From positions 25,422 through 89,421 of the forward strand of contig DBQA01000006.1 of the NCBI GenBank assembly GCA_002305675.1: a stretch of DNA of 64,000 nucleotides, given 5' to 3'. The position numbers and the translations under genes were made by a program. Below are positions 5,405 to 20,838 of this stretch, one piece after another (position 1 is the stretch's first letter; each line of letters opens with the position of its first letter). Source of the DNA: Patescibacteria group bacterium UBA1406. Its GTDB lineage: Bacteria; Patescibacteriota; Microgenomatia; UBA1406. The notes under the pieces are model-generated. The model ran no database searches, was not told the origin of the DNA, and worked only from the letters and a program-made list of their open reading frames with translations.

Positions 5405-5947
5405 ATGAAACTGTTGAAATCCAACAAACTACCTTTAATAGGAATCTTGGTAATGGTTTCACTGCTTATCGCCCTTACGATATGGAGAGGTCAACAAAAC
5501 TCACTTGCAGAAAACGCTAAAGCTCCAGGGAACGATTGGGACTCGCCTAAAAGAATTGAGGATTACTTCGTTAATGATATGCATATTCCGTCTGATGAAG
5601 CGAAAAGATATGCGGATGTTGGAGTTTCGTTTTATGTGAGAAAAGACAGTACATTGGATGGTATAGTCGGTAATTTAGCCTACTATGGCATTGTCAGGGA
5701 TGAAGAAACTTTACGATACGCTCTGAAGCACACAAATGATACAGCTCCTGGCAAGGAAGGTGCGATTAAGGTAGATGACGAGAGATCGATTGATCTGGCA
5801 GCGTATGGATTATCGAGGAATATGGACACTTGGCAGGTAGCCGATGCTCTGCTCAATAAACCTCATTTCGTCAATCTGACAGAATATACCTATATGTTTA
5901 TGCCTGGTGACCCGAATGATCGAACTGGCCCAAGGGCGAGTGAATAA
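5405..5947 (+). CDS. Hypothetical membrane-anchored protein (180 aa)
   Basis: An N-terminal TM/signal anchor (LPLIGILVMVSLLIALTIW). Codon usage is AT-rich like the island. TATAAT lies 6 nt upstream of the ATG. No family recognised. Confidence 0.45.
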   Translation: MKLLKSNKLPLIGILVMVSLLIALTIWRGQQNSLAENAKAPGNDWDSPKRIEDYFVNDMHIPSDEAKRYADVGVSFYVRKDSTLDGIVGNLAYYGIVRDEETLRYALKHTNDTAPGKEGAIKVDDERSIDLAAYGLSRNMDTWQVADALLNKPHFVNLTEYTYMFMPGDPNDRTGPRASE

Positions 5948-6068
5948 CTTTTTCCCAGATTCGTTGATTCACGCTTTTGAATAATCGTTCATGGGCATTG
6001 ATTAACGCCTGTAAGAACTTTTCCTTTTCGGTCAAGGACGCTTTAGTGAGGTTGGTTTTTACTTTCAT
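5898..6068 (-). CDS. Possible 56-aa ORF or gene remnant immediately downstream of ygjP-like gene
   Basis: Hand-translated as MKVKTNLTKASLTEKEKFLQALINAHERLFKSVNQRIWEKVIHSPLGQFDHSGHQA. Its ATG lies 3 nt after the ygjP-like stop. Its last 50 nt overlap the convergent ORF 5405..5947. Confidence 0.2.
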   Translation of the reverse strand: MKVKTNLTKASLTEKEKFLQALINAHERLFKSVNQRIWEKVIHSPLGQFDHSGHQA

Positions 6069-6071
6069 AAT

Positions 6072-6641
6072 TCAATTCAGCATCAAACCTTTGGATTTGA
6101 GTTCATGGACCAATTCCTTATAGTTAGGCAATACACTTGCCAGTAAGTTCCAATATCTTCGGGAATGGCTAAACTCCTTCAAGTGGCACAGCTCATGAAT
6201 CACAATATAATCAGCCAAATGATCAGGAAGTAAGACGATCCGCCAGTTAAAGTTTAGGTTCTTCTTTTTTGAGCAACTACCCCAGCAAGTTTTCTGGTCT
6301 TTAATAGCCACCTTATTGAACTTGAATCCAAACTTGCGGTTGAAGCGTTTGACCTTTTCTTCTACCAGCTCCAATGCTTTCTGCTTGAGAGTATCACTAT
6401 CCATATCTTCATAGGCTTTAGGCTGATTCTTTTTCAGTCCTTCAAAAAAGTCAATCTTTTCCAATACCCAGCGTGACTTTTGGATCAGATACTGGTCAAT
6501 GGTATTGGATTTGAGGGAATTTGGGACTGTTACTACAAAATCTCCTGTGCAATAGACAGTTAAGCGCATCCTCTTGGCTCTTTTACTGCGTTTGAGGGTA
6601 TAGGCAACTTCCCGATTGTGCAGTTTAATTTGTTTTTGCAT
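6072..6641 (-). CDS. YgjP-like M48/DUF45 zinc metallohydrolase
   Basis: 189 aa with an HExxH motif in IVIHELCHLKEFSHSRRYW. The start overlaps the hsdR stop (TAATG). This family is commonly linked to type I R-M loci. Confidence 0.8.
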   Translation of the reverse strand: MQKQIKLHNREVAYTLKRSKRAKRMRLTVYCTGDFVVTVPNSLKSNTIDQYLIQKSRWVLEKIDFFEGLKKNQPKAYEDMDSDTLKQKALELVEEKVKRFNRKFGFKFNKVAIKDQKTCWGSCSKKKNLNFNWRIVLLPDHLADYIVIHELCHLKEFSHSRRYWNLLASVLPNYKELVHELKSKGLMLN

Positions 6642-9550
6642 TAGAATCGTTTAATGACAACATCAATTAGCCTGTTTAGGTACTTGGAAAAGTCGGATAC
6701 TGTCAATTTCCCTCGGTAGTCTTTCAGAATAATCTCTTGCAGGGTCTTTTTGGCGTTTTTCAAAAACTCCTCACGCTTGGATGAGTTTTGCCAGCCTTCA
6801 TCTAAAATATCAGACAATCGTCTGGTAATGTCTTGCACCAGTTCAATCAACTGTTCCTGTTTGGCTTCTTTGACAAACTCCTGGGAGATGGTAAATAACC
6901 CATACTCACGCAAGTCCAACCCTAACGCTTTGGCTTCATCACCTTTGCTTTTGATGTCGTTAAGAAGATCGTAGTAACGCTTAATTCTTTCTGACAGGTC
7001 AATCTGTTGGTTCTCAAACTCTTTTTTAATAGCCGATAGCTTCTCACTGAATCTGACAAATACAGGGTTTGTATCAACATTGATGGAGATTTCCTGTTTG
7101 ATGATTTTCTCCAAGTTTCGGGCTTTCTCCTCATCATCCATCTTGTCCAGCCGCTCCATTGTATAAAGATCATTAACCTTGAGTTCCCTAAAGTTTCGGG
7201 TAATGCCTTCATAATCAATCCGGTTTTGAATAAGCTGTTTGACCTTTTCGCCATATTCGGCCAGCATTTCATAGTCAACCCCTTGGCTTCTGAACTCTTT
7301 GACAAAAGCCAGATAAAAGCTCGTGATCCACTCAAACTTGCGAAGATACTGGGACAGGAAAGGATCAGGGGACAATATCTCAAACAGAAGCTTTAACCTA
7401 CTGTACTTATCGGCAAAGAATTGTTGTTTTCTTTCATTATCGGTGAATATCTTGAGTGACCGCCTCAAGTTTTCCATTGAAGGATCTTCAATGTTGATGC
7501 CAACAAACAAATCCATAACCTCGCCCATGACTTTGGCAAACTCTTCTTTGAGCTTGTCGATGTTGAGCATGGCCGAATCAACAATACTTTCGTCAAAGTT
7601 CAGAGCATCATAAAGATTTTTGGTTATACCATAGTAATCAATGATCTTGCCGCATCCTTTGTTGGGATAAACTCGGTTGGTGCGTGCGATTGCCTGAAGC
7701 AGGTTATGATCCCGAAGGGGTTTATCCAAGTACATCACCTGCTCAAGCGGAGCATCAAAACCAGTTAAAAGCATGTCGCAGACCAGTAAAAACTTGAGCG
7801 GGCTGTTGGGGTCTTTGAATCGGGCAATAATTTTCTCTCGCTCTCGTTTGTTGGTGTTGTATTCTTTGAGATTATCGCTGTCAGTATTGGGATCGCCCGG
7901 GGAATAAACCACCTCTGACCATTCAGGGGAGGTTAACTGATCAATCATCGCTTTATACTTGGCTGTGGCTTCTCGGTCATAACAAACAATTTGAGCCTTG
8001 AATCCGTTTGGTTCAACATATAGGCGGTAATGCTCAACAATATCTCTGGCTACTGCCTCCATGCGTTTATCCAGTTTAACCAGTGCTTCTTTTTTGCCAT
8101 ACTTTCGCATCAGCAAGTCCTTCTGCTCTGGGGTAAGATCAGTAGTCATCTCGTCAAACTGCTCATCTACTTTCTGCTCGTCTATGAAAAACTTTGACAG
8201 TCGAGCTTCGTAGGTAACAGGCAAAGTGGCTCCGTCATCTATGGCTTGTTGAATCGAGTAGTAATCCAGGTATCGCTCTCCGTCTTGACCAAAGTTTCGG
8301 TGGGTATTGAGGGTCGCCTTATCAATCGGAGTGCCAGTGAAGCCAAAGTAAAAAGCTTGCTGCATTGAAGTCCGCAGGTTTATAGCTGATACTCCTTCAT
8401 TATCTCGGTGGGCTTCATCGGACAGAACAATAATGTTTTCGTTGGGATTTTCAATGTTTGATCCCAGTTCCGTAAACTTCTGGATGGTAGAAATAAAAAT
8501 ACCACGCTCTTGGTTGTAGATTTTCTGCTCCAGATCACGCCTTGAAGTAACCCGAATGACATTTTTGCCTCCACAGTTGACGAAGGTGTCGTATATCTGA
8601 TCATCCAAATCAATGCGGTCAACCAAAACAAACACTTTAGGATTATTAAGTTCCTTATCAAAGCGAAGTTTCCAGGCAGTAAAGAACATGGTCAAACTCT
8701 TGCCTGACCCTTGGGTATGCCAAATTAAGCCTCGTTTCTTTTCGCCTTCCTTGACCCGCTCCACAATTTTGTTAGTAGCCCTATACTGCTGATACCTGGC
8801 AATCTTTTTGATTTTCGCTTCTTTTTCCTGTTCAAAGGTTATAAAGTTGCCGATAATATCCAACAACCTCTCGTGTACCAATAAAGCCGATAGAGTCATC
8901 TCCAGTTGGCCACCAGTTTCTTTTTCAAGCTCCTCATCTCTCCACTGTAAGAAGTATTGGGGTGTGGCATAAGTGGCAGCATAAAAGGTCTTGAGTCCGT
9001 CTGTGGCGACATTAAAGCAGTTTGGCCAGTAGAGCTTCAGGGCGTTCTTCTCATACCGCTTGAGCTGTCCGACTGCCTTGGAATAATCAACTGATTCTCC
9101 GGCGGTTGGGCTTTTGGCTTCAATATCAACCAAAGGCAATCCATTTACAAAGACCATAATGTCCGGTCTGATGTTTTCCAGATTACCTTCAAAGTAAAAC
9201 TGGTTGGTTACGACATAACGATTGTTTTCTGGTTTATCCAGATCAACGACATGGTAATCTCGCATCTTGCCAGTTTGGGGGTCTTTCAGATTAACGCCAT
9301 AGCGGTATAGTTTCAAAAAACCCTCATTAGTGTCGATCTTTTTTACTTCCCGAAGGACAGTCAAAGCTTCATCATCTCCAATATCGTTTATGCGTTTTAT
9401 TGCCTCAAGCAGATGAGGAGTAATCAAATATTCCGTTTCAAACTCGCGAAGTTTAGAAAACTCTTCCGGCTTGATGTACTCATACCCAAGGGACTGGGAT
9501 AAGTATTTAATAATGTGTTTTTCGACTGTATATTGTTCGTTGAATTTCAT
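6641..9550 (-). CDS. hsdR: Type I restriction endonuclease subunit R
   Basis: 969 aa. The N-terminal nuclease-like region contains PDIMVFVNGLPLVDIEAK. Helicase motifs are HTQGSGKSLTMF (Walker A), VLSDEAHR (DEAH) and QAIARTNR (motif VI). Confidence 0.95.
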   Translation of the reverse strand: MKFNEQYTVEKHIIKYLSQSLGYEYIKPEEFSKLREFETEYLITPHLLEAIKRINDIGDDEALTVLREVKKIDTNEGFLKLYRYGVNLKDPQTGKMRDYHVVDLDKPENNRYVVTNQFYFEGNLENIRPDIMVFVNGLPLVDIEAKSPTAGESVDYSKAVGQLKRYEKNALKLYWPNCFNVATDGLKTFYAATYATPQYFLQWRDEELEKETGGQLEMTLSALLVHERLLDIIGNFITFEQEKEAKIKKIARYQQYRATNKIVERVKEGEKKRGLIWHTQGSGKSLTMFFTAWKLRFDKELNNPKVFVLVDRIDLDDQIYDTFVNCGGKNVIRVTSRRDLEQKIYNQERGIFISTIQKFTELGSNIENPNENIIVLSDEAHRDNEGVSAINLRTSMQQAFYFGFTGTPIDKATLNTHRNFGQDGERYLDYYSIQQAIDDGATLPVTYEARLSKFFIDEQKVDEQFDEMTTDLTPEQKDLLMRKYGKKEALVKLDKRMEAVARDIVEHYRLYVEPNGFKAQIVCYDREATAKYKAMIDQLTSPEWSEVVYSPGDPNTDSDNLKEYNTNKREREKIIARFKDPNSPLKFLLVCDMLLTGFDAPLEQVMYLDKPLRDHNLLQAIARTNRVYPNKGCGKIIDYYGITKNLYDALNFDESIVDSAMLNIDKLKEEFAKVMGEVMDLFVGINIEDPSMENLRRSLKIFTDNERKQQFFADKYSRLKLLFEILSPDPFLSQYLRKFEWITSFYLAFVKEFRSQGVDYEMLAEYGEKVKQLIQNRIDYEGITRNFRELKVNDLYTMERLDKMDDEEKARNLEKIIKQEISINVDTNPVFVRFSEKLSAIKKEFENQQIDLSERIKRYYDLLNDIKSKGDEAKALGLDLREYGLFTISQEFVKEAKQEQLIELVQDITRRLSDILDEGWQNSSKREEFLKNAKKTLQEIILKDYRGKLTVSDFSKYLNRLIDVVIKRF

Positions 9551-9551
9551 G

Positions 9552-10157
9552 TTATGATTTTTTAATTCTCTTAACTTCTATAGTTCCGTGATTATTCCTG
9601 TCACGACCAGAATAATAGTAGCCAGTTAAGGTGTCTTTTTCTTCATCGTGTACTAACTTTGCTGATCCTTCATGCATCGCCATGGTTTCGACAGCATCAT
9701 ATTTAGGCTCGTTTCTAAAAAAATAAAAAAGAGCGACCTTGTTATCAATATCACTTCTGCTGAAGTTTTCATGTACACTTACTGATTTTGACTGGTCGAA
9801 AGTGCCACATAATGTAATGTCAGTTGCTGTTTGTTCAATTACCAGTTCTGCTTTTATATCTTTCTGGAAATTATCGTAGGACGACTTAACAATACCTTGC
9901 CATTTTCCGTTAAGGTCATCGGCAATAATTATTCCAATTCTCCTAAAGAATGGATGTTTCCAAAGATAATTGTTGAAAACCCAAAATAAGATGGAATACA
10001 CACCCACAGTAGAGATCGGTAAATCAATGTAAAAAGGTAAAACAATTTGGTTACTTTTCAACAGTTGAGAGATTAAGTAAGAGATGATTACACTAACTGC
10101 TATTAAGATCAAGATAAAGTATGTGAATTTTTTATAGTTATCGCTGTTTATATTCAT
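9552..10157 (-). CDS. Two-TM, beta-strand-rich putative CBASS effector (SMODS-associated 2TM-beta / Cap15-like)
   Basis: 201 aa with two N-terminal hydrophobic helices (FTYFILILIAVSVIISYLISQLL and ISTVGVYSILFWVFNNYLW). A strand-rich C-terminal ~130 aa follows (GKWQGIVKS..ELVIEQTATDITLCGTF..VALFYFFRNEP..LTGYYYSGRDRNNHGTIEVKR). ATGA overlap with the upstream NTase gene. Confidence 0.55.
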   Translation of the reverse strand: MNINSDNYKKFTYFILILIAVSVIISYLISQLLKSNQIVLPFYIDLPISTVGVYSILFWVFNNYLWKHPFFRRIGIIIADDLNGKWQGIVKSSYDNFQKDIKAELVIEQTATDITLCGTFDQSKSVSVHENFSRSDIDNKVALFYFFRNEPKYDAVETMAMHEGSAKLVHDEEKDTLTGYYYSGRDRNNHGTIEVKRIKKS

Positions 10158-11095
10158 AGTGTTAATTTGCCCAAGAAATAATTAGCCATGACATTGATAA
10201 ACTTTATGAGATCATCCAGATTCCAGGTTTTCGGACTGAAAAGTGTATCTTGTTCATTTGCACAAATAAAACCAGTAATCCTTCCGGCCTCTATTGCGTC
10301 AAGAATAAACTGTAATGATTTGAGCATGCAATCCGTATAACTTCCATCAAAGCATGGACTGGTACAGTTGTATAAAAGATTTTCGATAAAGTATGAAGGA
10401 GCTGTTTTCTCATCTAAATGACCATGATCAATTAGATTATTCCGCATGTTTTTGTATATTCTGACCAAATCCTTGAATTTCCCAGAAGTATCAACATTCT
10501 TGGATTCGCAGTTTTCAAGATGCTTTTTGGGGTAGTTGATTATTTCAGTATCATCTGAAGTATCATAGAATCGCATCCCTTCAACAAATCTTTGGTCGGT
10601 ATATGAAAGGAATCTTTTGTAAATCCTGTATTGAAGGCAAGGTACGACATCTGCATCTACCCGATTACTATTTTTTATAACATTCAAACACTTTTTATCC
10701 CATTGAACCTGCCCCTGCCCAAAATCACGCAGTAATGCGTCATAGACATCTTTTTTGAAATGTTTGAATAAGTAAAGGCTGGTACTATGCATTGAATCAT
10801 AAAGAGCTTTTTGTGTAGATTCTAATCCGGTTGTATCAGATTTGAAAACGCTATCAAGTTGAACAACAATATCCACATCACTGTCAAATCTGACATTCGT
10901 GCTGTTGGCGTATGATCCCTGAAGATAAACTTCATATTTGAACTCGGACAAATTAAACGCTTTCTTAATTTCATCAAGAGGTAATTGCCTCCTTAATGCT
11001 TCCTCAATAATTTCTCTTGTCCTCTTAATCTTCTCCATTTCAGTAGGACTGGGAGCGCTTGACCAAGTTTGTAATTGCTGTTCAGAAATAACCAT
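10154..11095 (-). CDS. CD-NTase/SMODS-like nucleotidyltransferase
   Basis: 313 aa with the Pol-beta NTase triad layout: LQGSYANST (G-S), DSDVDIVV (DxD) and a third acidic motif VDADVVPC about 75 aa later. The helix motif PSYFIENLLYNC follows, as in CD-NTase/OAS-like enzymes. Confidence 0.65.
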   Translation of the reverse strand: MVISEQQLQTWSSAPSPTEMEKIKRTREIIEEALRRQLPLDEIKKAFNLSEFKYEVYLQGSYANSTNVRFDSDVDIVVQLDSVFKSDTTGLESTQKALYDSMHSTSLYLFKHFKKDVYDALLRDFGQGQVQWDKKCLNVIKNSNRVDADVVPCLQYRIYKRFLSYTDQRFVEGMRFYDTSDDTEIINYPKKHLENCESKNVDTSGKFKDLVRIYKNMRNNLIDHGHLDEKTAPSYFIENLLYNCTSPCFDGSYTDCMLKSLQFILDAIEAGRITGFICANEQDTLFSPKTWNLDDLIKFINVMANYFLGKLTL

Positions 11096-11099
11096 AAGT

Positions 11100-12230
11100 C
11101 TAATTCACCTCTACCTTTCTATTAAAAATATCGTGCATTAGTCCATTTTTTAGTGCAGTTAGCTTTTCTTTTGTTCGCCTTTCACTAAATAACTTTGCAT
11201 TAACAGCAGATACAGTAGCAACTATCTTTTCTTGTTCGCTTATGTCAGGTAATGGGACATCAAAATCTCTAATTTCTTCTAAATGTAAATTAGTGACTGT
11301 TCCTTGCTTGCTTCTTTTTGTTGCTTGGTTAATTAAATAATCCGATCCTAATACAATTCCCATGTAGTCTGACAAAACTTGATTGTGATCAGGTTTTATA
11401 AGACAAAGGCTGACGAAAATGCTAAACTCGCGATCCCAATTCACTATTTTTGTAATTCCTATTGTTCCATTCTTTGAAAGCAAAATATCGCCTTTTTCTG
11501 GATGACAGCGTTTTATAAGTTCCGCATGTTCTTCTGGGGAAATGTATTTGGTCGTTCCCCAGTTTATTTCAGGATCTTGTATATCGTTAATTCTCAAGAA
11601 GGGCACACCTGTTTCAGTATATTTTGGAGTTCTGTGAGTTCCATCTGTAATTTTAGAAGTAATAGTATTTAGCTTTACAATTTTCCAAGCAGGATTATTT
11701 TTCCCCTTATCAAAAAGATCAGAGATAATACCTTGTTTTAGTACTTCATTATTCTTAATAATTTCATCAGTAATTGAAATTTGTTTATTTAGTATTCGAA
11801 AATATGTTGATACTTTAACTTGAATATCTTGTGGAGGTAAGTTTACTGGTATTCCCATTAAGTCTGATTTGTTTAATTTACCTCTTGTTGTACCTGAAGT
11901 GTATTGCCTCAAATCAGCATAATTTAGGTATTCCTTTAGAAAATCAATGTCAGCATTAGTTACTCTCAAAACATGAGCGTGATTATTGACCCAACTTTTA
12001 CCCTCGATGATATAGGCAGTGTTTGCATATGCCGACCAGTCAGCTCCATCTTCACCAACAAGAAGCAACTTTTCGTCAAAGATGTAATCATCAACATAAT
12101 CAACAATTCCAGTAGCTCCATAATAAGGAATTGTGCCTTTAATCCGTTTTGATCTCGTTACAGGAACTCGTAAGTTATCCAAGTTTTCAACAAGCTCGCC
12201 GAGTTTTGATTGCTGCCAGTTATTTGTCAT
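11100..12230 (-). CDS. hsdS: Type I R-M specificity subunit S
   Basis: 376 aa with two target-recognition halves, each followed by a conserved helical spacer (LPPQDIQVKVSTYFRILNKQI and LPDISEQEKIVATVSAVNAKL). It overlaps the hsdM stop by 11 nt. Confidence 0.9.
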   Translation of the reverse strand: MTNNWQQSKLGELVENLDNLRVPVTRSKRIKGTIPYYGATGIVDYVDDYIFDEKLLLVGEDGADWSAYANTAYIIEGKSWVNNHAHVLRVTNADIDFLKEYLNYADLRQYTSGTTRGKLNKSDLMGIPVNLPPQDIQVKVSTYFRILNKQISITDEIIKNNEVLKQGIISDLFDKGKNNPAWKIVKLNTITSKITDGTHRTPKYTETGVPFLRINDIQDPEINWGTTKYISPEEHAELIKRCHPEKGDILLSKNGTIGITKIVNWDREFSIFVSLCLIKPDHNQVLSDYMGIVLGSDYLINQATKRSKQGTVTNLHLEEIRDFDVPLPDISEQEKIVATVSAVNAKLFSERRTKEKLTALKNGLMHDIFNRKVEVN

Positions 12231-13911
12231 ATCCTAATTCTTTGATGAATGAAGCAACTTTTTGATTAACAGAACTTCGTACTTCTTCCAGTTGTTTCAA
12301 TTCCTGCCAGACTTGCTTAACATCAATTACTTCCTGTTCCTCGTTTCCGTCAATGTATCGCCGGACATTGAGGTTATATTCGTTTTCCTTGATCTCCTCC
12401 ATGTCCACAACTCGGGCGTACTTCTCAATGTCCTGATACTGGTCGTAGGCCTTTATAATCTTGTCTATGTCCTGTTTGCGGAGCGTGTTCTGGTTTTTCC
12501 CTTCCAGAAAATCCCGCTCTGCGTCAATTAACAGTACCTTGTTTTTCTTTTGTTCAGGCTTGTTGTTATTCAATATCCAAACAGCAGCTGGGATTCCTGT
12601 CCCATAAAAGAGTTTGGGAGGGAGAGCGACAATTGCTTCAACAAGATCATTCTTTAATATCTGCTCTCTGATTCTACCCTCACTACCCCCTCTGAAAAGC
12701 ACACCATGAGGCAGGACAATACCAGCTCTGCCATTTGTGTTCATAGATTTGATAATGTGGAGAACAAATGCAAAGTCAGCGTTTTTCTGGGGAGGCAGAT
12801 CGTATCCGTCAATTCTTCCGTATTTGTCATTCCTATACACTTCAAACTCCCAGTCTTTAATGGAATAAGGCGGATTTGCGACCACAATGTCGAAGGTTTG
12901 CAAGTTTCCCGAATCAGTTATAAACTGCGGATTAGCCAAAGTATCACCCCTGCGGATGTCAGCACTGTCCAAGCCATGTAAAAACATATTGATTTTGGCT
13001 ATGGCAAATGTGCCGATGTTGATTTCCTGTCCGTAAAGGTAAAGCGTTCGGGCTATGGTTTCATTAACTTTGTCTTTGAGGTAGTTATAAGCTTCAAGCA
13101 AGAAACCACCTGATCCAACTGTGGGATCATAGACATGATCCTTCTGGTGAGGCTTGAGGATACCGATGATGATACGCTCAACTTCTCGTGGGGTATAAAA
13201 CTCTCCACCTTTTTTACCTGCATCTGCGGCAAACTGTTTGATCAGATATTCGTAAGCGTCACCCAACAGATCAGAGCTAATGTAGTTACTGCCAAAGTTA
13301 TACTGGGAGAAGTGGTTGATTAAGCGTTGCAGGGTTTCATTGGGGAATCGGTCTTTATTGGCAAAGTCCAGATCATCAAAGATTTTATCCAGTTTGGGGC
13401 TATTAACATTGGTGAGCTTGTCAAAGATTTCGTTGAGTTTCTTGCCGATATTTTCCGAAGTATTTTCAATCACCGACCATTTGCATTCTTTGGGAACTTG
13501 GAAGCGGTGGTTGTAATCGGCTTCGGCAAGGGATGTGTCCTTGAACTCCTCTAATACTTTTTGGTATTCCTCATCCCAGACATCGCTTATCCGTTTATAA
13601 AAAAGCAGACCAAAGATGTACTTTTTGTAGTCAGAGCTGTCTATCTTGCCTCGGAGAATATCGGCACTTCGCCATAAAAACTGTTCAAGCTGGGACAGGG
13701 TTAGTTTGCTGCCCATTTTGGCGATTATGACTTCAATATCTTCCTTGCGGTATTTGCGGTCTTTGCGTGGTCCAACCCGAAGTGGTACAAGTTCACCGCT
13801 TTTTTCCCAGTTACGAAGGGTATCCTGATGTATTTTGAAGAGCTTGGATACTTCACCGATTGTTAATAGGTCAGGGGTTTCTTCAAGAACTTTTTTTGCT
13901 ATATCTGTCAT
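12220..13911 (-). CDS. hsdM: Type I R-M N6-adenine DNA methyltransferase subunit M with an N-terminal MerR/excisionase-type HTH
   Basis: 563 aa. The HsdM N-domain contains LWRSADILRGKIDSSDYKKYIFGLLFYKRISD. The SAM motif is DPTVGSGGFL and the catalytic motif is VVANPPYS. The extra N-terminal ~65 aa is LLTIGEVSKLFKIHQDTLRNWEKSGELVPLRVGPRKDRKYRKEDIEVI. Confidence 0.95.
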   Translation of the reverse strand: MTDIAKKVLEETPDLLTIGEVSKLFKIHQDTLRNWEKSGELVPLRVGPRKDRKYRKEDIEVIIAKMGSKLTLSQLEQFLWRSADILRGKIDSSDYKKYIFGLLFYKRISDVWDEEYQKVLEEFKDTSLAEADYNHRFQVPKECKWSVIENTSENIGKKLNEIFDKLTNVNSPKLDKIFDDLDFANKDRFPNETLQRLINHFSQYNFGSNYISSDLLGDAYEYLIKQFAADAGKKGGEFYTPREVERIIIGILKPHQKDHVYDPTVGSGGFLLEAYNYLKDKVNETIARTLYLYGQEINIGTFAIAKINMFLHGLDSADIRRGDTLANPQFITDSGNLQTFDIVVANPPYSIKDWEFEVYRNDKYGRIDGYDLPPQKNADFAFVLHIIKSMNTNGRAGIVLPHGVLFRGGSEGRIREQILKNDLVEAIVALPPKLFYGTGIPAAVWILNNNKPEQKKNKVLLIDAERDFLEGKNQNTLRKQDIDKIIKAYDQYQDIEKYARVVDMEEIKENEYNLNVRRYIDGNEEQEVIDVKQVWQELKQLEEVRSSVNQKVASFIKELGYDK

Positions 13912-14088
13912 ATCAATCTTAATTTAATTCATCCATAGTTGGATGATAGTTGGTAAAGAGTATAGCTGTTCTTTTACCAAAATGCAAGAGTAATGTTTCA
14001 TAGGTATTCATAGGTTTGATCTACTTTTCCATTTGACACGAGCCTGCTCTCTGCTACGCTTACGATATACATATAAACAATTATTTAG

Positions 14089-14242: not shown

Positions 14243-15202
14243 ATGGAAAATAACCTGATTGTTTATAAACATGGTCAATTTAATCCTCTGGAATGGCCAC
14301 AGAGGCTGTTTGAACACTTGGATGTGTCAGATACGACCAGAATAGAGTACGGAGCGAGAATTAACCTTTTTATTGATTTTATTAAGGAGAAAGGCTTTAA
14401 CCGCAACAGCTACCTTGAATATAAGGGACACCTGTCCCGCAGGACTGACTTTTCTGTAAGCACCAAAAACAAATACCTGATTGTTGCCAGAGTCTTTTGT
14501 AAGGAACTGCACCGGCAGGGATATTTGCCAGTTGATATTACCCAGAACATTAAATCCTTCAAGCAGTCCAGGAAACACAAAAAGGATGGACTGACAGAAG
14601 GAGAAATCCAGAAAATACTATCTCACTTTCAGACAGTTGAGAACAGTAAAGATACCAGTCGAGCCAAGGCGTTACTTTCACTGTTGATTCTGCAAGGACT
14701 TCGGCAAATTGAGATAGTTCGCCTGAATGTGACTGAAATTGATATAGTTTCCCAAACAGCTTTTGTGCAAGGTAAAGGCAGGGATGACAAGGAAGTAATT
14801 GATCTGCACCCGGTCACAGTATCAGCTCTCAAAGATTACATTAGAAAGTGGAAAGTGGCAGACGGAGCATTATTCACCAGCACAAGCAATAACAGCAAGC
14901 ACCACAGACTAACCACACGATCCATCCGTAACATCATCAACCCCTTATTAAGAAGTCTTGAGATTGATAAAACAGTACATGGATTCAGACATTACTTCAC
15001 CACCAAACTTATCAAGTCTTATAAAGGTGATCTTTTAACAGTCGCCCAGTACACCAGACACAAGAGTCTGGAAATGCTTCAGATCTACAACGACACTATC
15101 AAACACAAGGCTGATTTACCCAAATATTACCAGACTTTTGAGAGCGTCAATTTTGACCAATTTGAGCCTTCCATTTCCCATAATTTACATTACAAGAAAT
15201 AA
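14243..15202 (+). CDS. Tyrosine site-specific recombinase/integrase
   Basis: 319 aa with an N-terminal SAM-like core-binding region. Catalytic-domain motifs are LILQGLRQIEIVRL (Arg), HGFRHYFTT (H-x-x-R) and TRHKSLEMLQIY (His...Tyr). Confidence 0.85.
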   Translation: MENNLIVYKHGQFNPLEWPQRLFEHLDVSDTTRIEYGARINLFIDFIKEKGFNRNSYLEYKGHLSRRTDFSVSTKNKYLIVARVFCKELHRQGYLPVDITQNIKSFKQSRKHKKDGLTEGEIQKILSHFQTVENSKDTSRAKALLSLLILQGLRQIEIVRLNVTEIDIVSQTAFVQGKGRDDKEVIDLHPVTVSALKDYIRKWKVADGALFTSTSNNSKHHRLTTRSIRNIINPLLRSLEIDKTVHGFRHYFTTKLIKSYKGDLLTVAQYTRHKSLEMLQIYNDTIKHKADLPKYYQTFESVNFDQFEPSISHNLHYKK

Positions 15203-15207
15203 AAACT

Positions 15208-15894
15208 ATGACTGACAAAAGACAACCAAAAACAGACCAACAACCACTCATCAAAACAGATGAAACCCAAACCAAGCAGGGAAAGCGGTTTGAGCTAATG
15301 ACCAAAAACGGATATAGACTGGATGAGGTTGTCAGTGCCTTACAGAAATCAATCAGGAGAGGACAGGAACAAAGGGCTGTCTATTGGGCTTATGAGATGT
15401 TTGAATCGGGGTATATCAAGTATCTGTGGAGGAGATTATCAGTTATAGCTCTGGAAGACATAAGCCTCGCAGACCCATTCGCTGCGGTACTGGTCAATTC
15501 TCTGGCTCAATCCAGTGAACGGATCAATCAGAAAGACAAGATTGAAGTACTTCACCCTGGAATGGCTGTGATCTACTTGTGCCGAGCCAAAAAGTCCAGA
15601 GAGGTGGATTATTGTTTGGAAATTGTCGAACACCAGAGAAAATCTGGTGAAAAATTAAAACTGGAAGATTATGAATTGGATAGCCACACCGAGGAAGGTA
15701 AAAGAAAGTTAAGAAAACAGGCTAAAGAACAAGGAATTAGTTATGAGCGATTGGTCGATGAACAGTTCTATTACGAGGGAGCGTTACTGGATAACTCTGT
15801 ACCAGTTATGGATGACAAATGGAAGAAGGAAGTTTGGGAGTTAAGGAAGCTGGATAAAGGAAAAATTGATAATCAGCATAAAACAGAGAAATGA
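15208..15894 (+). CDS. Hypothetical protein with an MgsA/RarA C-terminal-like helical domain (no AAA+ module)
   Basis: VVSALQKSIRRGQEQRAVYWAYEMFESGY...LWRRLSVIALEDISLADPFA resembles the MgsA_C pattern (S.L.KSIRGSD.DAALYW.ARM...GEDP..I.RRL...A.EDIGLADP). Confidence 0.45.
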   Translation: MTDKRQPKTDQQPLIKTDETQTKQGKRFELMTKNGYRLDEVVSALQKSIRRGQEQRAVYWAYEMFESGYIKYLWRRLSVIALEDISLADPFAAVLVNSLAQSSERINQKDKIEVLHPGMAVIYLCRAKKSREVDYCLEIVEHQRKSGEKLKLEDYELDSHTEEGKRKLRKQAKEQGISYERLVDEQFYYEGALLDNSVPVMDDKWKKEVWELRKLDKGKIDNQHKTEK

Positions 15895-16040: not shown

Positions 16041-16838
16041 ATGTATATTGAACCGATTCCTATTGAAATTGAGGATAATAAAGTCTTTGCACAAATAGCT
16101 TATCTTTTAGATGGAACAAGCATTATCAATGAAATACTTGAAATTAGGGAATCATTCAAAATCCAGAAGCCATTTGATGCTGATAATCGTAATGCTTGGA
16201 AAACGCACTTATTAAAACTGGCTGGATACGACCTCAATGAATATAAGGATATGAAGAAAATCCATGCAGGTGATCCCAACTTGGATAATAAAGAGTGGGA
16301 AAAACTGAAACGATGGTCAGTAGAAAACGAGCAACATCAACTACAATTTGTACAACTTCAAAAACAGTTCTGGGAAAAAATTGCCCATGTAAGGCGACTG
16401 TATCACTATCCTCCTCTTTATGACGATGTAATTATCCAAGCGGTTTTATTTAACAAGGTATCTCATTTCAAATCCGCTTATGCACGATTAACCCATGGGA
16501 ATGAAACCGATCTGCTTATAGGAGATGAAAACGATATTGTACATAAAATCATTTTGACTCCTTACGCCACCAGAGAGGATGTATTAGCTGCGTTTGATGA
16601 GATTAAAGGAGAGGAAACAAAAAAAGAGTCACAATTAACTGATCCGCCTTTTTCTCCTAAACTGGAAGCGGATACAAGGAACAAAATTAGAGATTTCCGT
16701 AAGTGGTACTGGATGAACTATAAAAACAATCCAGACAAGGTAGGTTATCGTAAGTTGGCAAAATTAACTGGCATGAATATGGAAACAGTCAGGAGTGGAA
16801 TCAGGTCATATTCAGACTTCATTAGCTTCAAAGCATAG
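16041..16838 (+). CDS. Hypothetical protein with a probable C-terminal HTH
   Basis: 265 aa. The C-terminal GYRKLAKLTGMNMETVRSGIRSY looks like a helix-turn-helix. No family recognised. Confidence 0.45.
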   Translation: MYIEPIPIEIEDNKVFAQIAYLLDGTSIINEILEIRESFKIQKPFDADNRNAWKTHLLKLAGYDLNEYKDMKKIHAGDPNLDNKEWEKLKRWSVENEQHQLQFVQLQKQFWEKIAHVRRLYHYPPLYDDVIIQAVLFNKVSHFKSAYARLTHGNETDLLIGDENDIVHKIILTPYATREDVLAAFDEIKGEETKKESQLTDPPFSPKLEADTRNKIRDFRKWYWMNYKNNPDKVGYRKLAKLTGMNMETVRSGIRSYSDFISFKA

Positions 16839-17117: not shown

Positions 17118-17346
17118 TCAGGAAGAATACTCGACCAAAGATTTAGGTCACGCAACAGCCTTACTTACTGCCGGAATCAGGCTCATCCGCCTTGAAAAGG
17201 AATTCAATTTTTACTGGTTTGTTTTTGACAGCCAGGGTGCGGAAGAAATAACAAACGCATACCTCTCTGGAGAATTAAGACAACCAGTCAAGCAATACAG
17301 TATGAATATGCGTTTTCTAAAAGATCGTTTATTTGCAGAACGATAA
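17098..17346 (+). CDS. Hypothetical small protein, DUF5659-like
   Basis: The pattern YSTKDLGHATALLTAGIRLIRLEKE.NFYWFVFDS resembles a phage/CPR small-domain family (DUF5659, from memory). Weak call. Confidence 0.4.
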   Translation: MQIKQNNQEEYSTKDLGHATALLTAGIRLIRLEKEFNFYWFVFDSQGAEEITNAYLSGELRQPVKQYSMNMRFLKDRLFAER

Positions 17347-17371
17347 CTATTTTTTAATAGATGAATATTAT

Positions 17372-17722
17372 ATGGAATTAAGAATTAAAATCTACGCTCT
17401 CGAAACAGACTTATCGCTTCAAGCCAGAAGTGACAATATCCTTGCCTTTGTTACTTGGATTTTCAAGACAGACATTGGTGATATTAAAATTAAAGGCGGT
17501 ACTATAAGGAGAAAAGAGTTCGGATCTAAAAGCCTTTTATCCTATGATGTCCCAGCAATTAAAACCAGACATGGATATAACAAGGCTTTCTTCATGGACA
17601 ATAAGGAATTATTTTTGAAATTAAGTAACTTCACCATTCAAAAATACTGCGAAGAAAGCGGTGAACCAGTTAGCGGTTTTTCAAATATCGAAGATATTAA
17701 CCCCGATGAAATACCAATATGA
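17372..17722 (+). CDS. Hypothetical protein (116 aa), possibly SpoVG-like fold
   Basis: I prefer the ATG at 17372 (MELRIKIYAL...) over the TTG at 17333. The alternating-strand N-terminus (ILAFVTWIFKTDIGDIKIKGGTIRRKEFG) is loosely reminiscent of SpoVG. Low confidence. Confidence 0.35.
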   Translation: MELRIKIYALETDLSLQARSDNILAFVTWIFKTDIGDIKIKGGTIRRKEFGSKSLLSYDVPAIKTRHGYNKAFFMDNKELFLKLSNFTIQKYCEESGEPVSGFSNIEDINPDEIPI

Positions 17723-17833: not shown

Positions 17834-19381
17834 ATGTATATGAATAATAGTATTATTTACATTGACTATAAGAGGAAATCATCAGAAGCTAAAGAACGCC
17901 AAGCTCTTTCACTAAAGGATCAGGGTGCAGAAAACAAAAAGGTTGAGCTTCGGGAAAAACTTAATGTTAAATACCGATTTTCAGAAAGTCGGTCAGCGTT
18001 CAAACCTCACAACAGGCCGGATTTTGATAAGGCCATTCAACTTATTAAAAGCGGAAAAGCCAACGCCTTCTTATGCTGGAAAGAAGATCGGCTTTGTCGA
18101 AACCCTGAAGAAGGTGGAATAATACTACAGTTATTGCAGGACGGTATCCTCAAAGAAATCCGCACAGCCACAGGAGCGGTCTATACACAGGACTCTGACC
18201 ACCTGATCCTACAAATACACTTTGGTATGGCTAATCAGTATTCCCGAAACTTGAGCCAGAATGTAAGGCGAGGCCTGAACCACAAATGTGAACGAGGAGA
18301 ATACCCAAGACCAGCCCCGATTGGTTATGAAGGGTTTGGGGATATCGGTCAAAGACAAATGAGGCCACACCCGACAGAATCAATCGTCATTAAAAAGCTG
18401 TACGAGTTAGCAAAAACTGGTGGATACTCACTATCCCAACTGGTAAAAATTGCTCAAGAGTTGGAACTAAAAACGAAACATGGAAAAAAAGTAAGTAAGA
18501 GTCACCTCTACAATATCATTACCCGACCAACTTATTATGGCTATTTTTACCACAATGGTGAGATGTTCGAAGGTACATACGAACCAATTATCACCAAGAA
18601 ACTATTTGATGAGGTGCAAGAGGCATTACAAAGGCGTTCCAAGCCTAAAGTGAAGGTATGGGAACACACTTACAATGGATTGATTACCTGTGGTGATTGT
18701 GGCTGTCAGATCACAACTACTATCAAAACAAAGTATTACAGAAGGACAAACAGGACTGTTGTTTATACCTATCACCACTGTACCCATCGCAAAGGTAACT
18801 GTTCCCAAAAAGCTATAACAGGTAAAAGGCTCGAAAAGCTGTTAATTGAAGTAATGACCAAAATTAAGATTGATGAGGAAACATGGAAGCTGGGTATCGA
18901 ACTGTTCAAGGCCAAACACCAGGAAGAGATGGAGAAGTTTTCAAAACGAGCCAGATATTTACAAAACAAGTACAACAATATCCAAACCCAATTAAAAGCA
19001 TTAGTTCGGATGAGAGCGGATGAAGAACTTACCAAAGAGGAGTTTTTGGAACAGAAAGCAGAACTTCTGAAAGACAAAAAGGACATCAAGGAAAAAGTTG
19101 AAGATAACGATTACTCTGCCGACACATGGTTAGAACTCTGTACAAAGTATTTGGAAACCGCTTTTTCCGCCAGAGAAACAATAGAAAAAGGTACGCCGCA
19201 AGAAAAGAGGGATTTAATCTTGGATTTGGGTGAGAACCTAATTTTGAAGAATGGAATACTCGATTTTCGCCTCAAAAAACCTTATGACGCACTCCTCTTG
19301 CCAGAATATCGTACTAATGTGCTGGGGGACAGGGATTCGAACCCCGATTCACGGCTCCAAAGGCCGCTGTCCTACCATTAG
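17834..19381 (+). CDS. Large serine recombinase
   Basis: The N-terminal resolvase domain has IDYKRKSSEAKERQALSLKDQ (Ser nucleophile context) and WKEDRLCRNPEEG. The recombinase domain has GEYPRPAPIGYEG. There is a zinc ribbon (CGDCGCQ...YHHCTHRKGNCSQ) and a long coiled coil. The last ~60 nt of the ORF are antisense tRNA-Gln sequence, so the true C-terminus is uncertain. ATG at 17840 is an alternative start. Confidence 0.85.
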   Translation: MYMNNSIIYIDYKRKSSEAKERQALSLKDQGAENKKVELREKLNVKYRFSESRSAFKPHNRPDFDKAIQLIKSGKANAFLCWKEDRLCRNPEEGGIILQLLQDGILKEIRTATGAVYTQDSDHLILQIHFGMANQYSRNLSQNVRRGLNHKCERGEYPRPAPIGYEGFGDIGQRQMRPHPTESIVIKKLYELAKTGGYSLSQLVKIAQELELKTKHGKKVSKSHLYNIITRPTYYGYFYHNGEMFEGTYEPIITKKLFDEVQEALQRRSKPKVKVWEHTYNGLITCGDCGCQITTTIKTKYYRRTNRTVVYTYHHCTHRKGNCSQKAITGKRLEKLLIEVMTKIKIDEETWKLGIELFKAKHQEEMEKFSKRARYLQNKYNNIQTQLKALVRMRADEELTKEEFLEQKAELLKDKKDIKEKVEDNDYSADTWLELCTKYLETAFSARETIEKGTPQEKRDLILDLGENLILKNGILDFRLKKPYDALLLPEYRTNVLGDRDSNPDSRLQRPLSYH

Positions 19382-19392
19382 ACGATCCCCCA
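19322..19392 (-). tRNA. tRNA-Gln (anticodon TTG)
   Basis: Hand-folded. The acceptor TGGGGGA pairs with TCCCCCA (U1-A72). The anticodon arm is GCGGC-CTTTGGA-GCCGT and the T arm is CGGGG-TTCGAAT-CCCTG. The discriminator is G. CCA is not fully encoded. Confidence 0.9.
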
Positions 19393-19465: not shown

Positions 19466-20392
19466 ATGATCAAGATATATTATAAGGACTATAAATCAGA
19501 CAAACTTTCCCTGATAGACGCTCCCCGGGCCGGGGCATGGATAAACGTGGTCGCTCCCAGCCAGAAGGAGATAGATTTTCTGGTCAAGGAATTCAAGCTG
19601 CCGGGGAACTTCATCCATGGGTCGTTGGACACAAACGAACGGCCCCATATTGATGAAGAGGGCGATATAAAGTTCATCGTCGTCAGGACCCCCATCAACG
19701 ACCAGGGCGTATACTTCATCCTGCCCGTCGGTATTATTATCACCGGCCAGAACATATTCACCATATCTTTAAGGAACAATCCCCTGCTCGAGGATTTCGA
19801 GCAGAACTTGATCCGGTCCTTCAGCACCACCAAGAGGGTCCGATTTCTCCTGCAGATCATGAAGAACGCCCACCGGTACTTCGACCTGCATACCGAGGAA
19901 ATCAAGTCCTCCGTCAGCAAGCTTGAACAGAAGCTTCTGGCGTCACAGCAGAACAAGGAGGTCATCGAATTTTTGGATATCGAAAAGACCATGGCCTATT
20001 ACCATGCGGCCATCACCTCGAACGGGGCCATGTTGGACAAGCTTGTCAACCACCAGAAGATCCCGATCTACCAACATGACAAGGAGCTTCTGGAAGACAT
20101 CATCATGGAGAACAAGGAAATTGCCGAAACACTTTATTTGTTCATCAACAACCTCTCGAACACCATGGATGCCTATGCCTCGATAATTTCCAACAACCTG
20201 AATATTACCATGAAACTATTGGCCTCTCTGACCATCATTCTCGGTCTTCCCAATATTGTGACCTCGTTTTACGGAATGAATGTCGATCTGCCCTTTGACA
20301 ATAATCCCTGGGCATACTGGATAATAATCGTGTTAGTGATCGCGATGATGGCCACTTCCTTCTATATCTTCATCAAAAGGCGGTGGCTCTAG
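19466..20392 (+). CDS. corA: CorA-family magnesium/cobalt transporter
   Basis: 308 aa from the ATG at 19466; the track uses TTG at 19430, which lies inside the putative promoter. The GMN signature is in VTSFYGMNVDLPF, with two C-terminal TM helices. Confidence 0.9.
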   Translation: MIKIYYKDYKSDKLSLIDAPRAGAWINVVAPSQKEIDFLVKEFKLPGNFIHGSLDTNERPHIDEEGDIKFIVVRTPINDQGVYFILPVGIIITGQNIFTISLRNNPLLEDFEQNLIRSFSTTKRVRFLLQIMKNAHRYFDLHTEEIKSSVSKLEQKLLASQQNKEVIEFLDIEKTMAYYHAAITSNGAMLDKLVNHQKIPIYQHDKELLEDIIMENKEIAETLYLFINNLSNTMDAYASIISNNLNITMKLLASLTIILGLPNIVTSFYGMNVDLPFDNNPWAYWIIIVLVIAMMATSFYIFIKRRWL

Positions 20393-20838
20393 ATCTCGAA
20401 CCTGACGAACTCCCCGATTCTGATGTTCTCACCTAGTTTGGCAATGTGTTGGCTGACAAGTTCGCCGACAGTGATGCTGGTATCCTTGATATATTCCTGC
20501 TTCAGTAGTTCGTCCGCTGTCTTTGGCTGCATTGAAGCGATCTGCATTGCCACCTCATAGGCCAGTTTGACAAAGTCGCCGTTCCTGGCCACAAAATCCG
20601 TCTGGCATAAAAGAGCGACCATAGCCCCCACTTTCCGGTTATGATGTATATAAGTTGATACGACACCCTGTTCCGTTGACTTCTCCTTTTTCTTCTCCGC
20701 TATCTCTATTCCCCACTGCCGGAGTAGCTTTTCCGCCTCCTCGGTATTGCCGTTGCTTTCCGACAGGGCTTTATTGATAAGCGCTATGGAAGCGCCGGTC
20801 TTACTTCTGAGCTTTTTGATTTTTTCGAGGTTCGCCAT
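20389..20838 (-). CDS. tsf: Translation elongation factor Ts (short form, 149 aa)
   Basis: I use the start at MANLEKIKKLRSKTGASIALINKALSESNGNTEEAEKLLRQWG (UBA-like N-domain). The core motif is LLCQTDFVARNGDF. The upstream extension in the track ORF overlaps rpsB. Confidence 0.85.
   Translation of the reverse strand: MANLEKIKKLRSKTGASIALINKALSESNGNTEEAEKLLRQWGIEIAEKKKEKSTEQGVVSTYIHHNRKVGAMVALLCQTDFVARNGDFVKLAYEVAMQIASMQPKTADELLKQEYIKDTSITVGELVSQHIAKLGENIRIGEFVRFEI

Follow-up and report, generated by a model that had tools for sequence, protein, structure and literature searches.

Type I restriction-modification (R-M) operons are established carriers of other defence genes, as reported for PrrC, for TgvAB (PMC11411939), for DarTG2 (PMC12255303) and for Pseudomonas islands (PMC12629846), and embedded defence genes have been surveyed systematically under the term 'guilt by embedding' (bioRxiv 10.1101/2024.01.29.577857). 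The hsdS-hsdR junction in particular was called a potential recombination hotspot for defence systems by the authors of the DarTG2 study (PMC12255303). Operons of a CdnE cyclase and the membrane effector Cap15, which belong to the cyclic-oligonucleotide-based anti-phage signalling systems (CBASS), are likewise already established (PMC10442399). Here, a window of 64,000 nucleotides from Patescibacteria group bacterium UBA1406 (contig DBQA01000006.1, positions 25,422 to 89,421), a member of the candidate phyla radiation (CPR), was found to carry a CdnE/Cap15-type pair between hsdS and hsdR of a type I operon. The pair is likely an autonomous CBASS cassette, housed in a slot with exchangeable contents within a mobile type I operon, with which it would be co-transcribed and co-inherited and would form a layered defence.

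The array consists of six minus-strand genes, which are hsdM (12220-13911; 563 aa; PADLOC MTase_I 9e-147; Pfam N6_Mtase 5.8e-111, HsdM_N 3.9e-26 and MerR_1 2e-9), hsdS (11100-12230; 376 aa; PADLOC Specificity_I 9e-46; Pfam Methylase_S in two stretches, 1.1e-32), a gene for a CdnE-like cyclase of the CD-NTases, nucleotidyltransferases like cGAS and DncV (10154-11095; 313 aa; PADLOC Cyclase PDLC00788, 8e-95), a gene for a two-transmembrane (2TM) effector of the Cap15 family (9552-10157; 201 aa; PADLOC Effector-2TM 6e-54; Pfam Cap15_CD_rec and Cap15_TM), hsdR (6641-9550; 969 aa; PADLOC REase_I 1.5e-137; Pfam HSDR_N, SWI2_SNF2, ResIII, T1R_D3-like and T1RH-like_C) and a ygjP-like metallopeptidase gene (6072-6641; 189 aa; Pfam YgjP-like 1.5e-44). 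Chance open reading frames (ORFs) can be ruled out for this array, since the matches to PADLOC and Pfam hidden Markov models (HMMs) are strong. The genes follow each other closely: hsdM and hsdS have ATGACAAATAA in common (an 11-nt overlap), the hsdS stop TAG is followed by ACTT and the ATG of the cyclase gene (a 4-nt gap), the cyclase and effector genes overlap by ATGA, the effector stop TAA is followed by C and the ATG of hsdR (a 1-nt gap), and hsdR and ygjP meet in TAATG (a 1-nt overlap). All six ORFs and all five junctions given in the sequence-only reading of the window were reproduced exactly from the ORF list and the junction sequences. A clear Shine-Dalgarno-like GAGGTG is found only at the cyclase gene, while the remaining starts lie in overlaps or 1-4 bases past a stop, and translational coupling would therefore fit the start positions within the array. 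Foreign defence genes stand here between R-M genes on the same strand, which is what Payne et al. 2024 describe as an embedded system.

The restriction part of the operon is intact in its motifs. HsdM has the motifs NPPY at 346 and DPTVGSG, for S-adenosylmethionine (AdoMet) binding, at 262; HsdS has two target-recognition domains and a C-terminus, LKNGLMHDIFNRKVEVN, that is kept across the backbone family; and HsdR has D-IEAK at 142, GSGKS at 281 and DEAH at 378, as expected for a PD-(D/E)xK nuclease with a superfamily 2 (SF2) motor. All three subunits carry the motifs and domains of type I R-M proteins, and together with the HMM identities this bears out the earlier view that the inner pair sits inside a type I operon.

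The inner pair had been read as a CBASS-type module of a CD-NTase and a membrane effector, and Pfam, PADLOC and PDB matches agree; PADLOC models readily detect the cyclase and the 2TM effector as well as the R-M parts. The best structural match of the cyclase is RmCdnE (PDB 6E0K, 7.5e-47), followed by EfCdnE, ClCdnE and LpCdnE, all of clade E, and it aligns to RmCdnE over GSY.NSTN.R.DSDVD and ADVV. The Pol-beta-fold CD-NTase pattern with catalytic GS...[DE]x[DE]...[DE] is present as G60, S61, D73, D75 and D149, and these residues do not vary among 40 homologues. In addition, N187 and K289-x-W291 align to lid residues of CdnE, and the di-pyrimidine CdnEs carry (R/Q)xW where the window cyclase has K289-x-W291 (PMC10442399). 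Because of this Asn lid and K-x-W motif, a uridine-containing cyclic dinucleotide is a reasonable guess for the product. The effector scores above the Pfam cut-offs for both Cap15_TM (31.8 bits against 28.2; 2.3e-7) and Cap15_CD_rec (89.2 bits against 31.2; 3.3e-25) and matches PDB 7N34 at 2.7e-5 over residues 80-199. Its hydropathy profile has a hydrophobic segment at about 11-33, and the predicted organization is that of the Cap15 family, with two N-terminal transmembrane (TM) helices and a C-terminal minimal beta-barrel receptor; a single-sequence AlphaFold model, with a pLDDT (confidence score) of 46, was too poor for a fold search. The effector with its cyclic-nucleotide sensing domain is adjacent to the cyclase in the same operon, as in type I CBASS. 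No Cap2/Cap3 (E1/E2/JAB) or HORMA/TRIP13 genes were found among the six operon proteins and the other scanned ORFs of the surrounding island, and therefore the pair is, by its sequence, a minimal two-gene type I CBASS with a predicted anti-phage activity.

Compared with the CdnE-Cap15 operons of EfCdnE, ClCdnE and LpCdnE (PDB 7X4C, 7X4A and 7X4F; Cap15 7N34; PMC10442399), the pair has the same two-gene architecture, the same GS/DxD/D residues, the Asn lid, a K/R-x-W C-terminal motif and an effector of two TM helices plus a receptor domain. The matches to the solved structures are modest (cyclase E values of 1e-33 to 1e-47; Cap15 3e-5). Unlike those operons, which are described as free-standing, the window cassette lies inside another operon and has no promoter region of its own. 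The Panoptes systems offer a different way in which such an effector could work, as their 2TM-beta effector is a Cap15 homologue with the opposite ligand response (PMC12657230, PMC12657218); a constitutively made nucleotide would then keep the Cap15-like effector off, and phage sponges or nucleases would trigger killing. However, the Panoptes cyclase is mCpol, with a Cas10-type palm, whereas the window cyclase has the Pol-beta fold of CD-NTases and is most similar to RmCdnE and EfCdnE, which are naturally paired with canonical Cap15 proteins (PMC10442399), and the effector fits the Pfam Cap15 and PADLOC CBASS 2TM models, which makes inverse signalling of this kind very improbable.

Under the favoured reading of an autonomous cassette in a layered defence, HsdM, HsdS, HsdR and the YgjP-like protein form an intact type I system that carries CBASS as cargo between the 3' end of hsdS and hsdR. 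The cassette, which has no flanking DNA of its own, would be transcribed from the conserved hsdM promoter through the same read-through that hsdR needs. Restriction would attack unmodified incoming DNA first. The cyclase would then make a cyclic dinucleotide, probably containing uridine, that Cap15 would bind, oligomerizing and breaking the inner membrane, and where phages get past restriction, CBASS would act as a second, abortive-infection line of defence. The two layers would be independent in action and would share regulation and inheritance, while the cargo would be swapped probably by recombination in the conserved flanks.

To place the array among its relatives, species-representative genomes and metagenomes were searched with a cyclase-family alignment, and 160 loci were obtained (loci carry the prefix L below); their flanks were annotated with HMMs built from the window proteins. 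Flanks of at least 3.5 kb on each side were available for 75 loci, of which four are embedded in a type I operon (two of them being the same sequence), six have type I genes on one side and 65 have no type I gene nearby. A comparison with related genomes, which had been proposed earlier, shows that the arrangement is no one-off, as the same array is present in at least seven further public contigs. Unlike in the family at large, the order hsdM, hsdS, cdn, cap15, hsdR recurs within the sub-clade of the window, in L082, L167, L169, L170-172 and L173, with ygjP wherever the contig extends past hsdR; the called genes meet at junctions of 0-4 nt. Given this recurrence, the array is no singleton but a unit that is conserved and transferred. 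Within the sub-clade of the window (L081, L082, L173, L167, L169 and L170-172), the proteins are 63-81% identical, HsdS and YgjP excepted; L167, L169 and L170-172 were ascertained through HsdR. In L081 (1995-4271), the HsdM frame runs into one Methylase_S domain as a 759-aa stop-to-stop ORF directly upstream of the cassette, which is either a fusion of HsdM and half of HsdS or a sequencing frameshift.

The contents of the hsdS-hsdR slot were followed in a small sample of seven distinct loci found through HsdR alone (74-89% identity), independently of their cargo. All seven share one plan, hsdM-(small-gene slot)-hsdS-[cargo]-hsdR-ygjP, and an empty hsdS-hsdR slot was found in none of them. CdnE and Cap15 fill the slot in L167, L169 and L170-172. 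The closest backbone relatives (HsdR 80-89% identical) hold other cargo there. L163 (6195-8004) and L164 (6184-7998), whose HsdR is the closest to that of the window (88-89% identical), carry a 416-aa SMODS-AGS_C cyclase and a SLATT_4 2TM effector; PADLOC assigns them to its Cyclase (2e-91) and 2TM effector (7e-65) models, and the pair is a different minimal CBASS. L165/L166 (L165 7312-8004) carry a 230-aa protein of no known family, matching neither Pfam nor PADLOC models, and L168 (2693-3409) carries a 238-aa protein with a weak DUF3800 match; both single-gene cargos are candidate new defence genes. Between the window and the relatives with other cargo, homology is lost where hsdM ends and returns 5-16 nt ahead of hsdR. 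Every member of this backbone has the HsdS C-terminus LKxGLMxDIFxxKVEVN, and hsdR starts with ATGAAATT[C/T]AA[C/T] or ATGAAGTTTAAC in nearly the same codons. Because the conserved hsdS end and hsdR start bracket the cargo, its exchange by homologous recombination is possible; the target-recognition domains are shuffled independently of it. Further CBASS-bearing copies of the backbone are hinted at by contigs of equal length (P0032/P0342, 8673 bp; P0013/P0298, 7627 bp). A further variable slot, between hsdM and hsdS, contains one to three small genes (107-158 aa, with no family matches) or an NYN-domain protein (L163 4560-5036; L164 4637-4984; L165 4955-6082; L167 4934-5278; L082 913-1539, the NYN-domain protein); in the window this slot is empty (11-nt overlap).

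The cassette also behaves as a discrete unit outside this backbone. On a 660-kb contig of a gammaproteobacterial metagenome-assembled genome (L003), it lies in an array of hsdM, hsdS, cdn, cap15 and hsdR with 4-nt overlaps and a 1-nt gap. There, Cdn and Cap15 are 63% and 77% identical to those of the window, and Cdn is 84% identical to that of L169, while HsdM and HsdR are only 27-30% identical to those of the other loci. The nucleotide similarity between L003 and the window is limited to the two ORFs (o.5812-7354; cdn 5806 to cap15 7349). In a rough neighbour-joining tree without support values, L003 falls within the CPR cassette clade, and free-standing and embedded cassettes are interspersed. 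Relatives at 59-68% identity occur outside R-M in other mobile contexts (L001, L004, L005 and L009), for instance beside TraG-like and M23 genes in L001 and beside a serine recombinase in L005, and the likeness of the free-standing cassettes to window DNA is limited to the coding region; these close relatives outside R-M argue for the autonomy of the cassette. More distant cassettes (30-37% identity) are found between hsdM and hsdS of two more unrelated backbones: in L027 and L036, with a fused HTH_3-Peptidase_M78 gene (CapH/CapP-like) before CdnE/Cap15 and a TIR-domain protein after it in L027 (8850-12645), and in L133/L136, where Shedu (SduA_C) precedes the cassette (9016-11459). In total, embedded CdnE/Cap15 pairs occupy at least four unrelated type I backbones, with three cassette lineages and two positions. 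In several distant loci of the family (L016-L018, L021, L029, L044, L084 and L088), a 3-4 kb ORF that includes an N6-methyltransferase domain terminates shortly upstream of the cyclase gene, which suggests that CdnE/Cap15 pairs also lie directly downstream of other methyltransferase enzymes, possibly type IIG-like.

These distributions bear on whether restriction and CBASS are functionally linked. What triggers minimal type I CBASS is not well understood, and the embedded pair could act as a guard, with HsdMSR restraining the cyclase, or with the cyclase sensing anti-restriction or DNA-processing products, such that blocked restriction would trigger killing. PrrC inside EcoprrI is the precedent (PMC12657230, PMC12629846, bioRxiv 10.1101/2024.01.29.577857), and both the embedding of CdnE/Cap15 in four unrelated backbones at two positions and the second CBASS type in the slot of L163 and L164 would agree with it. 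However, the L003 cassette, 63-84% identical to its relatives, stands beside HsdM and HsdR with no more than 27-30% identity, which makes a specific interface between the proteins improbable; moreover, 65 of the 75 family loci with long flanks have no type I gene nearby, close relatives are free-standing, and the same backbone holds non-CBASS cargo in L165/L166 and L168. We consider such a guard quite unlikely. The sequence-only reading had allowed for functional cross-talk, and this is not favoured, as related cassettes occur in unrelated R-M systems or outside R-M and the backbone holds other cargo. Equally doubtful is a broader proposal, in which minimal CBASS would be specifically adapted to type I operons, the CPR slot would be obligately filled, and the modules would guard restriction against anti-restriction or respond to a ligand made by HsdR. 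If CBASS did guard restriction, minimal type I CBASS would gain a defined trigger.

Regarding transcription, a candidate operon promoter with a possible operator lies upstream of hsdM (13950-14015, minus strand), with a -35 element TTGCAT (13987-13982), a 17-nt spacer and a -10 element TATACT (13964-13959). The tandem repeat ACCTATGAA-T-ACCTATGAAAC (14015-13995, minus strand) is directly upstream of the -35 element, and the inverted repeat TTGGTAAA/TTTACCAA flanks the candidate -10 element on both sides. The tandem repeat and both hexamers are kept upstream of hsdM in L163-L171, whatever the cargo, with ACCTATGAA-n-ACCTATGAAA, a -35 element TTGCAT or TTGACA, 17-18 nt and a -10 element TATACT across the backbone relatives. 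The tandem direct repeat is a candidate operator, reminiscent of the direct repeats of RptR. HsdM itself carries an extra N-terminal MerR-type helix-turn-helix (HTH) domain (aa 15-65; window 13717-13869), which every backbone relative also has (the called HsdM proteins of L163-L171 match Pfam MerR, MerR_1 and HTH_17), and this MerR/HTH_17 domain may be an autoregulator of the operon. The bases just upstream of hsdR vary with each cargo. Because the hsdM promoter is conserved while the sequence upstream of hsdR varies, hsdR would most simply be expressed by read-through, and the simplest reading is a single regulated promoter from which transcription would run on through the cargo to hsdR and ygjP; co-transcription of the six genes is plausible.

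Alternatively, the genes might be adjacent but form more than one transcription unit, with the cassette or hsdR having its own promoter inside the preceding coding sequence and the two layers uncoupled. Some classical type I systems have an hsdR with its own promoter. Minus-strand sigma-70-like hexamer pairs do lie inside cdn (10848-10819 and 10566-10539) and cap15 (9748-9720) of the AT-rich cassette, and in L027 the embedded cassette has a regulator gene of its own, HTH-M78 (CapH/CapP-like), ahead of it. These hexamer pairs, however, are at background frequency: the operon scan gave 29 promoter-like sites against a shuffle expectation of 22.8 +/- 5.5, and no excess of terminator-like sites. 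Since the counts are not above shuffles, the scan supports neither side. The junctions of 0-4 nt or overlaps in the window and its relatives, and the conserved hsdM promoter beside a variable hsdR upstream sequence, speak against separate units, and an uncoupled arrangement is unlikely. The earlier claim that the array has no room for internal promoters holds for the intergenic DNA; it does not hold beyond this, since promoters can lie within coding sequence.

Several points weigh against an autonomous, co-transcribed cassette. Internal promoters may be present inside the coding sequences, and the consensus of the promoter scan was sigma-70-like, from which CPR promoters may differ. CBASS-type cargo is found in four unrelated backbones and two CBASS types in one slot, a recurrence that could stem from a functional link and not just from hitch-hiking. 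Moreover, the cargo-independent sample comprises only seven backbone loci, and the neighbour-joining tree has no support values.

Among the described embedded systems, the DarTG2 operon (PMC12255303) is similar in that it, too, holds a two-gene defence of the abortive type where hsdS and hsdR meet, in the order hsdM-hsdS-hsdR, and has a single upstream promoter and direct-repeat operators, the repeats in the window being candidates only. It differs in its cargo, which is a toxin-antitoxin system there and a cyclic-nucleotide system in a CPR host here, and in its regulator, which is the separate small protein RptR there, whereas the candidate regulator here is a MerR-type HTH fused to HsdM. TgvAB in VPI-2 of Vibrio cholerae (PMC11411939) and PrrC in EcoprrI share the same-orientation nesting and the logic of complementary layers. 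Unlike the window cargo, TgvAB is a type IV restriction system (PMC11411939) and PrrC is an anticodon nuclease that the R-M complex holds under physical control; the comparative evidence here argues against such dependence. The survey of Payne et al. (bioRxiv 10.1101/2024.01.29.577857) covers architecture of the same class and reports that 96.7% of embedded genes are on the same strand, that known systems form a share of the embedded genes, and that it was built on RefSeq genomes, where CPR are scarce; CBASS is absent from this text and from the supplements searched. The Geobacillus and Pseudomonas papers do not describe a CBASS-in-type-I arrangement, and the mentions of hsdR/hsdS in the Panoptes paper are strain genotypes only. 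No report of CBASS as type I R-M cargo, or of this CPR island, was found, with literature coverage incomplete and the absence unproven. The sequence-only reading was not aware of a described CD-NTase and membrane-effector pair in that position in a CPR-type genome; embedding in general is known and surveyed, and for CBASS cargo the literature gave no explicit report. What is new is the cargo type (CBASS) and the host group (CPR) within a known embedded architecture, which is a modest addition.

The YgjP-like protein is a HExxH metallopeptidase (HELCH at 149), and its gene is the conserved last gene of the operon, after hsdR in L082, L163-L173 and L133. The position after ygjP is variable in the relatives, where Imm5_like, 206-aa, 286-289-aa Cys-rich and 106-aa proteins are found. 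In the window, a 56-aa ORF (5898-6068, minus strand) begins 3 nt past the stop codon of ygjP and overlaps ORF 5405-5947, which is convergent to it; that it is a remnant of the downstream gene of the relatives was rejected, as a similarity search gave nothing significant.

The array lies in a low-GC tract of about 14 kb (~5.3-19.4 kb; GC 0.32-0.44), whose left boundary is approximate. The GC contents are nested, with about 0.50 in the host, 0.42-0.44 in hsdM and hsdR, and 0.32-0.36 in hsdS and the cassette. Divergent from hsdM, on the plus strand, are a XerA/XerC/XerD-like tyrosine recombinase (14243-15202) and an MgsA_C-domain protein (15208-15894; MgsA_C 2.2e-14); Phage_integrase and MgsA_C genes with nucleotide homology to the window are also next to hsdM in L163-L167, and L169 has only MgsA_C there. 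A large serine recombinase (17834-19381, plus strand) overlaps with its 3' end a tRNA-Gln gene (19321-19392, minus strand), which marks the right end of the island. The contig of a sister strain (L162), 99.9% identical, ends at window position 19358 within tRNA-Gln, which fits a variable island. Direct repeats or a partial tRNA-Gln copy that could mark attachment (att) sites were sought at the left end, and only chance 8-11-mers were found. With two recombinases and tRNA-Gln, a horizontally acquired and mobile island is the best explanation. Three further island ORFs (16041-16838, 17333-17722 and 5405-5947) have no family match.

The sequence comparisons show very wide transfer of the R-M backbone. 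The window HsdR has homologues at 72-75% identity in more than 100 protein clusters across many CPR lineages, among them Gottesman-, Nomura-, Morani-, Kaiser- and Woesebacteria and Minisyncoccia, and a homologue at 86% is on a contig labelled Deltaproteobacteria. No relatives of HsdR were found in viral contigs by the HsdR scan. A tblastn search of the cyclase against PLSDB plasmids gave 51 distant matches (<60% identity), none with an R-M feature under the match. The view of the host as a CPR-type genome is upheld by ThrS: its best database homologues share 64-69% identity with it, and those that carry an organism name are all Patescibacteria. The host EF-Ts is only 149 aa long (20389-20838), and a type IV pilus cluster (PilB 46525-48240 in the window; PilM and pilin genes in L161) is present; both are in keeping with a reduced CPR genome.

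CPR bacteria are thought to depend mainly on restriction for defence, and the widely transferred CPR restriction island described here also holds abortive-infection modules. Its hsdS-hsdR slot, filled in 7/7 cargo-independent relatives, is a practical place to search for new defence genes, with the 230-aa and 238-aa cargos and the small genes of the hsdM-hsdS slot as candidates. Moreover, the same backbone with different cargo, and related cargo with different backbones, provide a natural experiment on co-regulation versus functional coupling.

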